Of a stretch of DNA of 64,000 nt, positions 58,191-64,000 are shown piece after piece. The DNA lies in the NCBI GenBank assembly GCA_036253055.1, contig GCA_036253055.1_4124.1. The stretch is one strand, 5' to 3'. Under the pieces are notes generated by a model. That model made no database searches. It was not told the origin of the DNA and saw nothing but the letters and a program-made list of their open reading frames with translations. This DNA comes from a phage. The position numbers were made by a program, and so were the translations under genes. The stretch's first letter is position 1. Each line of letters starts with the position of its first letter.

Positions 58191-59393
58191 ATGTTACCTT
58201 TTGGAAGAATGATTAAGTACGCAAATATTGCACCAGGTCCAGAACCTGTAGAGTTCTCAGATGTTTTACAACAACATTATACAAACTGTATGTATCTACA
58301 TAACCCAACTAATACTTTATATGGTTATGGTAGTAATAACTTTTATCAATTTGGTCTTGGGAATTCAGCAGCAGTTTCGTCATTTACAGTACTTGCAAGG
58401 AACTGTGCAGCCTTTTGGCTTGGTGTTCAAGGTTCATTGATGATTGATTTGGATAATAAAATATACTACACTGGATCGGTTGGTGCATTTTCTGATTATG
58501 GAGATGCAACACCTGTTAATGGTTTTTTGACAACATGGACTGATGTTACTGTTGCATTTAATAAAATTGGTGTTATGGCTAATATGATCAAGAGTGTATA
58601 TATAGGTGAAAGTACTAGAATATTATTAACCGATGGTAGAGTAATTGCGTGTGGAAGAAATACTAATGGTGAATGTGGCTCTGGTAATAAAAATTCCATC
58701 CCTACACTCACAGTTATGACTAATATGGGTGAAGTTACACATATGGCATGTTCATTACAAGGAACGCACTATATCAAATCAAATAAAGATGCATGGTTTT
58801 GTGGTAAGGATAACTTTGGTGAAAGTGGATGTGGTGGTAGTTCTGTTGTATATTTGAACAAATTCGTGATTAGTAATGTAGAACATATTAGTACTACATA
58901 CGATGTTACTTGGTGGTTTACTACTGGTGGGTCTGTATATTATAGCGGGGCTAACAGTACTGGACAAGCTGGTAATGGTACGACTACATCGGTAAATCAG
59001 CTAACACCAATTAGGAACACATCGGTCACGGTTGATGTAAGTAAGTACAGTACTTTTATTTGTCCAAGTAATATGGGAAATGCATCAATTGGTGCACCTA
59101 TGGCACAATACGCACCATATGTTAGAAGTAGTGGTGCTAACTCATATGGTCAAGAAGGTAATGGAACTAATACATTAGTTAGAACTTGGAATATTTTTAA
59201 TCTTAGTGCAATAAGTGGTGGTTATGACAATGTTCTTATGGCATCTAAAGATTGGAGCAGAACCATAATAATTACTAAAGATTATAAATTATATGCATGT
59301 GGTGGCTGGAATGGAAATGGTGGTAGATTGCCAGATGGCACTTATAGTATTACTACACTAACATTAATGCCAACGCAGTTATGGCAACAATAG
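58191..59393 (+). CDS. RCC1-like beta-propeller repeat protein, paralog 1 (400 aa)
   Basis: Repeated G-x-N-x-x-G-Q/E-x-G-x-G blade signatures; conserved N-terminus MLPFGRMIKYANIAPG; SD AAAGGAGGG. Confidence 0.7.
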   Translation: MLPFGRMIKYANIAPGPEPVEFSDVLQQHYTNCMYLHNPTNTLYGYGSNNFYQFGLGNSAAVSSFTVLARNCAAFWLGVQGSLMIDLDNKIYYTGSVGAFSDYGDATPVNGFLTTWTDVTVAFNKIGVMANMIKSVYIGESTRILLTDGRVIACGRNTNGECGSGNKNSIPTLTVMTNMGEVTHMACSLQGTHYIKSNKDAWFCGKDNFGESGCGGSSVVYLNKFVISNVEHISTTYDVTWWFTTGGSVYYSGANSTGQAGNGTTTSVNQLTPIRNTSVTVDVSKYSTFICPSNMGNASIGAPMAQYAPYVRSSGANSYGQEGNGTNTLVRTWNIFNLSAISGGYDNVLMASKDWSRTIIITKDYKLYACGGWNGNGGRLPDGTYSITTLTLMPTQLWQQ

Positions 59394-59401
59394 GAGGGAA
59401 T

Positions 59402-60511
59402 ATGTTACCTTTTGGAAGAATGATTAGGTATGGAAATATTGTCCCTGGTCCTAAAAAAATAATTAAAGTTGGTGCTTCTACCCAAGGCCAATTCTTATTG
59501 ACTGATTCACATGATTTATATTACATAGGTAGAAATCAAGGTGGTGAATCTGGAAATGGTAATACCAACACGGTATCTTCATGGATATTAGTAAGTGCAG
59601 ATGTTTCTAATTTTTTCGTGGGTGATCGTACACTTGTTATTATTAAAAATGATAATACGATATGGACATCAGGTCAAACGTACTGGTTCTCATCTTCTAC
59701 AACTACTTCTTACAGTACTGTATTAGTTGAAAGAACTAATTGGTTTACCAATGCTATACCAGTAAGTGAAATTGCTAATATTGTATGTACAAATGGTTTA
59801 ATATTTGTACTTAGCACTAATTCAGTACTCTATGGTGCAGGAGATAATGGATATCGTGGTTCTTTGGGTATTGGTTCCTCATCAATTTACACATTAACTC
59901 AATGTGCTACGAACGTTCGTAAAGTAATGACCAATGCGAATGATAGTATGTATCTTACATTAGATAATAAGCTATATAGTTCTGGATGGAATAGTAGTGG
60001 GCAGCATGGTACGGGGAACCAAACACAAATTAACACTTGGGGATTGCGTAGTTCTGGTGTAATCGATGCAGCCATTGGTGGTAATGCATTAAATTACTAT
60101 AATGGTACATCATATTTCGTATGTGGTCAAACTCCAAACTTTCTTAGTTCAGGTACGACTACATTCCGTGCAGTTCCTGTAAGTACTTTGCCTAATAGTT
60201 CTCCATTGTTTATGACGAATTCACCTGCCTTAAATACTGCTACACAAATGGTAATTACTAGTACATATCAGAAGGGTGTTGGGGCGAACCGTGGTTTGGG
60301 ATTAAACAATTCTCAAACTGGTGCTATATATAGTGCTACCAATTTACAATTACCCGTTGAAGTTAGTGAGATTAGGGATGTTCTTTTTAGTGATGGTTTG
60401 ACATCGATATTAACCAAAAATGGAGATGTGTATAGTACTGGATCGTATTACGCCATTCCAGGTGCAATCGAGGATGTTGCAGTCTTTACTAAAATTGATT
60501 TACCAAAATAA
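59402..60511 (+). CDS. RCC1-like repeat protein, paralog 2
   Basis: Start at conserved MLPFGRMIRYGNIVPG (SD TAGGAGGGAA overlapping upstream stop); blade motifs. Confidence 0.7.
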   Translation: MLPFGRMIRYGNIVPGPKKIIKVGASTQGQFLLTDSHDLYYIGRNQGGESGNGNTNTVSSWILVSADVSNFFVGDRTLVIIKNDNTIWTSGQTYWFSSSTTTSYSTVLVERTNWFTNAIPVSEIANIVCTNGLIFVLSTNSVLYGAGDNGYRGSLGIGSSSIYTLTQCATNVRKVMTNANDSMYLTLDNKLYSSGWNSSGQHGTGNQTQINTWGLRSSGVIDAAIGGNALNYYNGTSYFVCGQTPNFLSSGTTTFRAVPVSTLPNSSPLFMTNSPALNTATQMVITSTYQKGVGANRGLGLNNSQTGAIYSATNLQLPVEVSEIRDVLFSDGLTSILTKNGDVYSTGSYYAIPGAIEDVAVFTKIDLPK

Positions 60512-60517
60512 CATAAT

Positions 60518-60546
60518 GCCAGTACACTGTACTGGCTTTCTTATTT
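60518..60546 (+). terminator. Intrinsic terminator (GCCAGTACactGTACTGGC + TTTCTTATTT)
   Basis: Perfect 8-bp stem and T-rich tail after stop of paralog 2. Confidence 0.7.
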
Positions 60547-62941: not shown

Positions 62942-62947
62942 TTTAAT

Positions 62948-62976
62948 GCCAGTACAGAGTACTGGCTTTCTTATTT
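62948..62976 (+). terminator. Intrinsic terminator (GCCAGTACagaGTACTGGC + T-rich)
   Basis: Same hairpin family. Confidence 0.7.
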
Positions 62977-63012
62977 GTATTAAATATAGTATAATGAATA
63001 AAGGAGGAATTT

Positions 63013-64000
63013 ATGTTACCTTTTGCAAGAATGATGAATTATGGGAATATTGTCCCAGTACCACTTCAAATTAAGAAAATAATCCCAACTGATTTAGATG
63101 TTGTGGTTCTGTATACGGATGGTCAACTATATGCACGTGGGAATAATAGTTTTGGGAAATTCGGTAGAGGAAACAACACTGCATTAAAATCATGGACATT
63201 AATTAGAGAAAACGTTAACGATTGCTGGCTTACACAAGGAACTTTATTAGTAAAAGACAATGACTCAAATTATTATTACTGTGGATATGGTAGTCATATT
63301 GGTTTACCAACAAGTACTACTACGTTTTTAAGTTATAACCAATATATTCAAAATTTGTACACACAAAGTTCAAGTACTTCAATTAAACAGATGTATGGAG
63401 GTACTACGTGGTTTACGGTATTAATGGATAATAATACAATATGGAGTACAGGGTGGAACAGTGCTAGACAATTCGCCGATGGAACGGGAACTACTTATGA
63501 AATAACCGATGGTTCATTTGTAAAAGCGGTCACACCTAATGTTGATATTGCACAAATACAGTCAACAAATAACTGTGTATTGTTGTTTGATAAACAAAAT
63601 AATTTATATATTGGTGGTGTTACATCCGGTATAAGTTCCGCGACTACATGGACTTCATATAATGAATATACTTTATATCAACCAAATACAACATACACAA
63701 AAACGTTACAATACACAGGATGCTCAACTGGTGCAGTAAGTGCTTTAGTTGAAAATCCAAATACAGGAGCACGTCAGTTCCTTGTCGGTGGGTTAGCTAA
63801 TAATGGGGCATGGGGAAATAACACTACATCTAGCTCTGTTAATGGAGTTTTAGGAAATAACAGTACGACGTTACCACCCGGTACTTTGTATTCAATTCAT
63901 ACTGGATACCCACCACAATCTAGTATACTAATTACGAGTACTGGTGTATATGCAACTGGTTTAAATGCCAGTAGTTATGCTGGTTCATTGGGTATTGGTA
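63013..64000 (+). CDS. RCC1-like repeat protein, paralog 5 (partial, runs off window)
   Basis: SD AAGGAGG + ATG 63013, N-terminus MLPFARMMNYGNIVP; frame read by eye as open to window end; absent from track. Confidence 0.55.
   Translation, partial: MLPFARMMNYGNIVPVPLQIKKIIPTDLDVVVLYTDGQLYARGNNSFGKFGRGNNTALKSWTLIRENVNDCWLTQGTLLVKDNDSNYYYCGYGSHIGLPTSTTTFLSYNQYIQNLYTQSSSTSIKQMYGGTTWFTVLMDNNTIWSTGWNSARQFADGTGTTYEITDGSFVKAVTPNVDIAQIQSTNNCVLLFDKQNNLYIGGVTSGISSATTWTSYNEYTLYQPNTTYTKTLQYTGCSTGAVSALVENPNTGARQFLVGGLANNGAWGNNTTSSSVNGVLGNNSTTLPPGTLYSIHTGYPPQSSILITSTGVYATGLNASSYAGSLGIG

Follow-up and report, generated by a model that had tools for sequence, protein, structure and literature searches.

At the end of a 64,000-nucleotide (nt) stretch of phage DNA (contig GCA_036253055.1_4124.1 of GenBank assembly GCA_036253055.1; the whole stretch is hereafter called the window) lies an array of five tandem plus-strand genes, P1 to P5 (positions 58191-64000), each encoding an RCC1-like protein that begins with a conserved leader of 12-15 residues starting in MLPF. 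The same leader heads virion proteins of unrelated folds in syntenic arrays of related genera, and a short boundary block that joins an intrinsic terminator, a promoter-like element and a Shine-Dalgarno sequence to the leader codons recurs between the genes. On balance, we think it probable that the array consists of autonomous cassettes making leader-tagged, late-expressed accessory proteins that reach the virion. Its less ordinary point is this self-contained cassette, with a protein leader held in common with unrelated virion proteins of related phages.

The 5.9-kb region shares 97-99% identity with the Asteriusvirus jumbo myophages SP27, PBECO4, slurp01 and 121Q, whose hosts are E. coli and Salmonella; the window derives from a phage of this group. 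Five tandem plus-strand paralogs had been predicted from the sequence alone and are present at the predicted positions (Table 1), with pairwise identities among them of just 24-37%. In PBECO4 the array runs on beyond P5 by about five genes, to about ten in all (gp286-gp296), and phAPEC6 has 15 open reading frames (ORFs) with an MLPF start. Of the lengths of about 380-430 amino acids (aa) that had been given for the paralogs, the figure of 430 aa does not stand, because the longer versions of P2 and P3 in the program-made ORF list start at upstream in-frame ATGs and read through the intergenic cassette. The true starts are fixed by the conserved Shine-Dalgarno sequence together with the MLPF start, and the short ORFs at 61615-61842 and 62886-63074 are the cassette itself translated. 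The original prediction also held that these are the only plus-strand genes of the window, which agrees with what we found: minus-strand ORFs cover 86% of positions 1-58100, and the one plus-strand ORF there that no other ORF overlaps (39321-39647) begins with TTG, lacks a Shine-Dalgarno sequence and is unconvincing. Rfam and tRNA scans of the whole window gave no matches.

Annotation of the array is inconsistent in the public records of PBECO4 (12073, 14416, 18178-19357, 19363 and 20570-20689) and phAPEC6 (2360-3506 and 5992-7716). Some start codons are set upstream within the cassette, and spurious small ORFs are called on the cassette. One array gene of PBECO4 is split, the MLPF start at 18178 running into a stop after 59 aa, and several phAPEC6 paralogs, including a glycine-rich one, are mis-framed or left unannotated.

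The propeller fold is supported by profile matches in all five proteins and by a structure model of one. Each of P1-P5 has PF00415 (RCC1) and/or PF13540 (RCC1_2) repeats above the gathering score and a full-length match to phrog_4219, 'regulator of chromosome condensation' (E 1e-86 to 1e-114); all five also match PF25390 (RCC1-like; E 1e-13 to 1e-27) below that model's 150-bit whole-domain cutoff. We made structure models for P1 and P4. For P1, AlphaFold2 with an alignment of 14 sequences gave a confident model that has a predicted local distance difference test score (pLDDT) of 88, a predicted template modelling (TM) score of 0.88 and about 28 strands, and its Foldseek matches are UVR8, the HERC2 and HERC1 RLDs, RPGR and RCC1 (TM 0.7-0.8; E-values 1e-23 to 1e-16, the best being 1.5e-23). 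The P4 model, from a shallow alignment, is of low confidence (pLDDT 63); it serves to show an all-beta character and a disordered leader but is unfit for a fold search. P1 is thus modelled as a seven-bladed RCC1-like beta-propeller. Fold recognition and structure prediction both bear out the propeller that had been proposed, and the blade motifs quoted in that proposal occur in the translations of P1-P5.

The accompanying claim that this is an unusual fold for a phage is not supported. RCC1 or 'DNA condensation' names are carried by these genes in dozens of jumbo-phage GenBank records, a PHROG family exists, and the phAPEC6 paper remarked on eleven RCC1-like proteins (PMC7247149); the RCC1 annotation is already known from these three sources. 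RCC1-like propellers also occur in many other viral proteins, such as the annotated tail fibres of Pseudomonas phages Littlefix and PollyC (BFVD). A profile search of 1.8 billion representatives returned 69,887 matches, mostly giant multi-RCC1 proteins, and gave no functional lead beyond a dozen full-length relatives of about 380-400 aa.

The names in the databases imply that these proteins condense DNA, either by ordering the packaged 350-kb genome or by manipulating the host nucleoid. Besides the GenBank and PHROG names, this reading can draw on the speculation of the phAPEC6 authors that RCC1-domain proteins might order DNA (PMC7247149) and on the presence of the proteins in the virion. However, the name goes back to RCC1 of eukaryotes, which is an exchange factor for Ran, and Ran is missing from bacteria and phages. 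The fold is a generic binding scaffold whose best structural matches are UVR8 and the HERC2 RLDs, the isoelectric points of the array proteins (5.1-7.6) are neutral to acidic and speak against bulk binding of DNA, lectin and Kelch domains occupy this locus behind the same leader in sister genera, and the low identity among the paralogs is unexpected for a conserved DNA-packing role. We regard DNA condensation as highly improbable and rejected it as the main model, its sole basis being the name of the eukaryotic founder. The likeness to the RLD superfamily (RCC1, UVR8, the HERC1/2 RLDs and RPGR) extends to a seven-bladed propeller with RCC1 repeat signatures, but identities are 15-21%, the Ran and chromatin context is missing in bacteria and only this phage group has the leader. 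A guanine-nucleotide exchange function is not expected for the array propellers.

The leader has the consensus M-L-P-F-x-(R/I)-hydrophobic-x-x-Y-(G/A)-N. Among the 14 aligned sequences M1, P3, F4, R6, Y10 and N12 are invariant, in keeping with the conserved N-terminal module originally described. The leader is flexible in both models, with pLDDT below 50 at residues 1-19 of P1 and 1-21 of P4, and the propeller does not begin until about residue 25, so the motif is not its closure strand. Searching by tblastn with a 20-aa leader gave matches in 61 phage records, in 1-15 places each, all of them Rak2-like jumbo myophages: Asteriusvirus, Mimasvirus GAP32 and CBB, Eneladusvirus BF and fHe-Yen9-04, and phages of Erwinia, Xanthomonas and Klebsiella aerogenes. 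The leader occurs within the array only; all five six-frame matches in the window are the five array genes, and the 15 places in phAPEC6 are its 15 array ORFs.

In several related phages the leader is joined to other folds as well. The syntenic plus-strand array of CBB (gp425-431) encodes Kelch-like proteins, LamG/concanavalin-like lectins (PF13385, E 2e-12) and 223-aa 'virion structural proteins' (phrog_6011), all of which start with MLPF(S/P/A)(R/I)xxxY(G/A)N. The same pattern is seen in Serratia phage BF (gp372) and Cronobacter phage GAP32 (GAP32_002), one array slot of phAPEC6 is filled by a 244-aa glycine-rich protein with an MLPF leader, and unassigned domains in this set of phages carry it as well. 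Because it heads Kelch, LamG, glycine-rich and other virion proteins in syntenic arrays of related genera, the leader is a fold-independent tag. The suggestion that a common N-terminal module sits beside variable binding domains is thus borne out by a leader that lies outside the fold, is joined to several fold types and belongs to an array with members in virions.

Alternatively, the conservation of the N-terminus might be a by-product at the DNA or RNA level, caused by concerted evolution, gene conversion or translation initiation, in which case the peptide would have no function and the proteins would be late cytoplasmic ones outside the virion. In favour of this, the conserved block is sharply bounded and runs unbroken from the terminator to about codon 15, all 28 Asteriusvirus copies have the same first 12 nt, and the mass-spectrometry coverage of virion proteins (see below) is low. 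Between genera, however, both the upstream DNA and the codons differ but the peptide persists: MLPF is invariant in 36 distinct sequences from three genera in which codons vary (CCT/CCA/CCG/CCC, TTT/TTC and AGA/AGG), which indicates selection on the leader peptide. The conserved residues are specific ones (P3, F4, Y10 and N12) rather than the outcome of a general A/T-rich codon bias, P2 has the leader without an upstream cassette, and array proteins appear in several independent virion proteomes (phAPEC6 and CBB; GAP32 and BF by annotation). A mere by-product is therefore quite improbable in our judgement.

Published mass spectrometry places orthologues of the array proteins in virions. Electrospray ionization tandem mass spectrometry of phAPEC6 particles detected gp003, gp005, gp006, gp007, gp009, gp010, gp549 and gp551 (PMC7247149, Table 1). 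By their coordinates all eight are array members, and gp549 is 92% identical to P4. In CBB, both CBB_552 (Kelch) and CBB_551 were structural by mass spectrometry, and the authors pointed to the roughly 10-kb cluster that holds both as a possible origin of the tail 'hairs', which are unexplained (PMC5259590). Array proteins of GAP32 and BF are placed in virions by annotation. Both phAPEC6 and CBB are 'hairy' phages (PMC7247149, PMC5259590), and phAPEC6 in addition has an inner body composed of unknown proteins (PMC7247149).

The boundary block is about 110 nt long, spanning about -65 to +45 with respect to the ATG, and comprises the terminator, the TAAATA element, the Shine-Dalgarno sequence and the leader codons; outside these limits identity drops to about 0.3, the random level, on both sides. 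The terminator GCCAGTACnnnGTACTGGC is present in exactly three copies in the window, with none expected. It consists of GCCAGTAC-nnn-GTACTGGC, an 8-bp stem with a 3-nt loop, followed by the T-rich tail TTTCTTATTT, and folds at -12.4 kcal/mol (z -4.6). Downstream of it follows TTTCTTATTTGTATTAAATATAGTATAA(C/T)(A/G)AATAAAGGAGG and then the ATG. The upstream element that had been reported at the P2-P3, P3-P4 and P4-P5 junctions recurs there without mismatch (60550, 61760 and 62980), and a degenerate fourth copy with three mismatches precedes P1 (58158), again with none expected. The heading of the original prediction had an identical terminator separating each pair of genes. This overstates the case, since P1-P2 has none, although the text beneath correctly named the other three junctions. 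Nor are the copies strictly identical, two having the loop ACT and one AGA. At the P1-P2 junction the spacer is 8 nt, holds neither terminator nor promoter element, and the Shine-Dalgarno sequence of P2 overlaps the stop codon of P1. Starting only 8 nt after P1, P2 must be co-transcribed with it.

A composite motif of this kind recalls the PeSL (promoter early stem-loop) cassettes of T4-type phages (PMC2839356, PMC4122927), which together with the internal-protein loci of T-even phages (see below) are the nearest analogues of the array. In both, a terminator-promoter motif lies at the gene boundaries of a plastic region, and gene content differs between near-identical phages in a manner consistent with homologous exchange between motifs. 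PeSL cassettes, however, have a strong sigma70 early promoter and stems with G/C tracts, whereas the present cassette has no -35 hexamer, carries TAAATA (late type), uses the phage's own GTAC-rich palindrome as its stem and reaches into the coding sequence, leader included. Because the terminator is present but the promoter part is not sigma70-like, we consider the cassette an analogue of PeSL rather than a member.

The promoter-like element appears to be of a late type. A promoter scan called no sigma70 promoter in the cassette, which lacks both a usable -35 and an extended -10; in two of its four copies TATAAC replaces TATAAT, so that the conserved final T of the -10 hexamer is missing. On these grounds we rejected a sigma70 reading. 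The nearest sigma70 match of the scan (61700-61727) is inside the 3' end of P3, just before the terminator. The 'middle' promoter of CBB (-35 TGAAACG) was likewise considered and is absent from the cassette. The phage does use consensus sigma70 promoters where they are wanted, as shown by a perfect TTGACA-17-TATAAT on the minus strand at the divergent array boundary (Table 1).

TAAATA occurs 23 times in the window against 139 +/- 11 expected, an about six-fold depletion, and ends 25-26 nt before the ATG of P1, P3, P4 and P5, i.e. at four of the five array starts. The depletion suggests that selection keeps stray late promoters out of the early region. The spacing is kept in nearly all cassettes of PBECO4 and phAPEC6, and in CBB and GAP32 GTAAATA lies 29-32 nt before array genes. 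In phAPEC6, (T)ATAAATA stands in front of late genes, those for capsid, scaffold and baseplate among them. Its 50-kb structural region has eight copies of TATAAATA, seven of which lie immediately before a gene in the correct orientation, and that region of this sister phage, not the window, encodes the gp55-like late sigma factor gp237c. The CBB authors reported ATAAATA as the late consensus. The T4-type late octamer TATAAATA itself is absent from the window on both strands, and ATAAATA occurs once per strand. Taken together, the missing -35 and extended -10, the two TATAAC copies, the constant TAAATA spacing in all four copies and the late-gene motif of phAPEC6 favour a non-sigma70, late-type element, as had been proposed, and from sequence comparison we infer that the cassette carries a late-type promoter variant.

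We compared the order of paralog types, defined as groups at 60% identity or above, between relatives. The window has the order B C A D E and PBECO4 has B C A D E H F I J K. In phAPEC6, a phage of the same species, the order is D G A G A C B L E M F N O P Q. Here the first four types come in reverse although each gene keeps its orientation, additional types have been inserted, and other genes take the distal places. The published genome-wide identity of these phages is about 98%, whereas orthologous array proteins share 65-99%. 'Chromosome condensation regulators' were likewise among the most divergent proteins of two other Asteriusvirus isolates (PMC13070987). We had considered the equal-length flank at 46000-51900 as a conserved baseline for hypervariability and rejected it because it is itself highly mosaic among the same phages; divergence of the array is therefore judged against the genome-wide and orthologue identities given above.

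Two observations accompany this comparison. Across the circularised start of the phAPEC6 record (350178-352598 and 1-2360), types G and A occur twice in tandem, which may reflect either a genuine tandem duplication of 2.4 kb or an error of assembly. The early segment at 46000-51900 has pieces shared at 80-90% identity with unrelated large myophages (rV5-like, Vequintavirinae and Phapecoctavirus), which, as far as sequence comparison goes, indicates that small early genes are exchanged across phage groups.

Under the explanation that we prefer, the locus is the start of a polymorphic array that has 10 to 15 genes in relatives. The intrinsic terminator would insulate each cassette from the gene upstream, a -35-less promoter on the TAAATA core would be read by a phage gp55-like sigma factor, and a strong Shine-Dalgarno sequence is followed by an ORF beginning with the flexible leader. 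The leader probably directs the proteins into or onto the phage particle and may serve as a common tag by which they dock to a single partner in the virion or in assembly, each protein otherwise consisting of an exchangeable binding domain (RCC1-like here; Kelch, LamG lectin or glycine-rich elsewhere). The boundary block might provide homology for recombination, by which cassettes could be gained, lost and reordered yet remain confined to the locus.

Several points weigh against this explanation. Variability alone is not specific to the array, since the neighbouring early region is mosaic and rich in other tandem paralog families. The promoter-like element of the cassette, ATTAAATA or GGTAAATA, is a partial match, agreeing with TATAAATA at six of eight positions with the TAAATA core intact and no -35, and the open-access literature that we searched held no RNA-seq or transcript mapping for this phage group. 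The identical first 12 nt of the Asteriusvirus copies suggest that gene conversion or translation-initiation constraints add to the local conservation. The mass-spectrometry evidence concerns orthologues in phAPEC6 and CBB, phages other than that of the window, and for phAPEC6 it is thin, at 1-5 unique peptides and 3-17% coverage per array protein (PMC7247149); at such coverage, mass spectrometry cannot tell components from sticky late proteins, or inside from outside.

Whether such proteins are inside or outside the particle bears on a further alternative, in which MLPF would be a capsid-targeting sequence (CTS) like that of T-even phages and the propellers and lectins would be packaged in the head, maybe in the inner body of phAPEC6, and injected against host defence or other host proteins. 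The T-even internal-protein (IP) loci of Repoila et al. 1994, as far as they are recounted in PMC2839356, PMC3012670 and PMC12373910, resemble the array in several respects. A short N-terminal leader, there a packaging signal (PMC12373910, PMC3012670), is the sole common part of otherwise unrelated proteins (here RCC1, Kelch, LamG, glycine-rich and unassigned). The genes are clustered and vary in number, order and identity between close relatives, and their flanks, promoter and stem-loop elements of the PeSL kind, may promote shuffling while keeping it within the locus (PMC2839356). The products are found in virions, and these phages have T4-like late-transcription machinery and a T4-like head module that includes the scaffold and a protease of the prohead core. 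The large number of paralogs per phage is also reminiscent of the several specific internal proteins of T4. The open-access text to which our search was confined, and outside which a prior account may exist, contained no mention of this parallel with IP loci, of a fold-independent leader shared across genera, or of a cassette combining terminator, late promoter and leader.

The differences are nonetheless considerable. The leader sequence has no evident similarity to the T4 CTS, and the leader has no conserved glutamate in Asteriusvirus, where position 9 is K, N, R, Q or D. Position 9 is often E in CBB and BF, but the (L/I)xE of a gp21-type cleavage site, which we considered and rejected, occurs at residues 7-9 in just some members of those two phages. 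The cargo consists of propeller or lectin binding domains of 220-400 aa, typical surface-binding modules, rather than the small inhibitors described for T-even loci, and 40 kDa is large for passage through the tail. Peptide counts are low compared with about 1000 internal-protein copies in T4 (PMC3012670), and the proteins are not basic. The arrays, with 10-15 genes, are much larger, and virion association of orthologues stands here in the place of the head packaging and injection described there. Packaging in the head as internal proteins is in our judgement unlikely.

We therefore favour surface display over internal injection. The cargo folds (lectin, Kelch, RCC1 and glycine-rich) are typical binding modules, RCC1-like propellers are found in annotated tail fibres of other phages, no protease site is conserved in the leader, the proteins are not basic and mass spectrometry yielded few peptides from them. 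Their most likely role would be binding of ligands or glycans while exposed on the surface. A mechanism for external display is offered by the secondary receptor-binding proteins (RBPs) of Klebsiella phages KP32, K11 and KP34, in which a 29-aa N-terminal peptide is dispensable for folding yet necessary and sufficient to mount exchangeable binding or enzymatic domains, foreign ones included, on the virion (PMC13352976). The separation of an N-terminal peptide from the folded domain is common to both systems, and mounting through such a peptide is the mechanism that we propose for display, but there the partner is the T4 gp10-like branching domain of RBP1, whereas docking of the leader here is suggested by analogy. 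Moreover, the KP32-type proteins are trimeric beta-helix depolymerases, the array proteins are probably monomeric propellers, and the sequences are dissimilar. The Littlefix and PollyC tail fibres share the propeller fold, and one has a T7 tail-fibre N-terminal anchor domain. They are, however, long single proteins (867-1365 aa) with a canonical anchor, unlike the free-standing proteins of about 40 kDa with a 12-15-aa leader described here.

A bolder version, possible but on the whole doubtful, is that the MLPF leader is a universal virion-targeting tag of Rak2-like jumbo phages except the RaK2/K64-1 lineage and that the boundary block is a dedicated recombination module for cargo swaps. If so, either 10-15 propeller or lectin proteins might be loaded into the head for injection, as an expanded and structurally new counterpart of the anti-defence internal proteins of T4, or they might be mounted on the 'hairy' appendages of phAPEC6 and CBB as a combinatorial set of adhesins.

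Table 1. Genes, terminators and promoter-like elements at the array and its boundary (coordinates of the window)
Feature	Position	Strand	Description
P1	58191..59393	+	400 aa; RCC1-like, modelled as a seven-bladed propeller; leader MLPFGRMIKYANIAP, codons 1-15 (58191-58235)
P2	59402..60511	+	369 aa; RCC1-like paralog; leader MLPFGRMIRYGNIVP
P3	60582..61721	+	379 aa; RCC1-like paralog; leader MLPFARMVKYGNIAP
P4	61793..62941	+	382 aa; RCC1-like paralog; leader MLPFVRMMNYGNIAP
P5	63013..64000	+	RCC1-like; truncated by the window end, at least 329 aa (of about 396; 396 in PBECO4); leader MLPFARMMNYGNIVP
Intrinsic terminator hairpin 1	60518..60536	+	GCCAGTACACTGTACTGGC, then TTTCTTATTT
Intrinsic terminator hairpin 2	61728..61746	+	Same as hairpin 1
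Intrinsic terminator hairpin 3	62948..62966	+	Same 8-bp stem, loop AGA
Promoter-like element and Shine-Dalgarno, degenerate	58158..58185	+	GTAAATATGATATAACAAATAAAGGAGG; TAAATA 58159-58164, its end 26 nt from the P1 ATG; no terminator
Promoter-like element and Shine-Dalgarno	60545..60578	+	TTGTATTAAATATAGTATAACAAATAAAGGAGGG; TAAATA 60551-60556
Promoter-like element and Shine-Dalgarno	61755..61788	+	TAAATA 61761-61766; TATAAT in this copy
Promoter-like element and Shine-Dalgarno	62975..63008	+	TAAATA 62981-62986
Perfect sigma70 consensus promoter, TTGACA-17-TATAAT	58113..58141	-	12/12 matches; drives the leftward early small-gene block; divergent array boundary

The minus strand of the window holds several further families of tandem paralogs. 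Twenty-nine small ORFs of about 70 aa lie at 27900-33551 (plus 12271-12661 and 25246-26801), with no Pfam match in the members tested. Abutting the RCC1 array, ten paralogs of about 60 aa (MHKEYY...LPMYL...Y) follow each other every 184-190 nt at 54045-57636, and a second, three-member family lies at 56623-57187. Families of 8 (about 150 aa) and 10 (about 115 aa) members are found at 7648-18231 and 25675-27910. Tandem expansion of gene families is therefore general in this part of the genome rather than a property of the array alone.

The commonest 8-mer of the window is the palindrome CAGTACTG, with 52 copies in 64 kb against 0.77 expected (e.g. 52195, 52248, 52558, 52647, 52719 and 53112-53801). 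AGTACT has 256 copies, and GTAC is about three times above expectation in the window. The palindrome is enriched in PBECO4, phAPEC6, CBB and GAP32 as well; it lies in intergenic DNA and also, in any of the three frames, inside ORFs. Split by 3 nt, the same motif makes up the array terminator GCCAGTAC-nnn-GTACTGGC, and several leftward early promoters on the minus strand (about 42540-42570, 34920-34950, 35240-35265 and 36885-36915) have the palindrome in their spacer, in the form TTGACA-N8-CAGTACTG-N1-(C/A)ATAAT. It could be a site for a DNA-binding protein, for modification or for a recombination event. The palindrome is densest at 52600-54044, a 1.4-kb segment with no minus-strand ORF of at least 50 aa and no Rfam matches, the counterparts of which are also unannotated in PBECO4 and phAPEC6. 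Within it, an 8-nt periodic array of about 12 copies of TAGCCGTC occupies 52884-52982.

These results suggest that the 'chromosome condensation' label, copied across dozens of jumbo-phage genomes, is probably misleading. In its place, leader-tagged virion proteins offer a hypothesis for the role of the 10-15 paralogs, for the makeup or decoration of the hairs or the inner body, and for why it is at this locus that close isolates differ most. If the leader suffices for incorporation, it would be a short portable tag for loading or displaying (foreign) proteins on therapeutic jumbo phages. If the cargo binds host surface glycans or defence proteins, the array would be a determinant of host range or counter-defence that can be swapped cassette by cassette.

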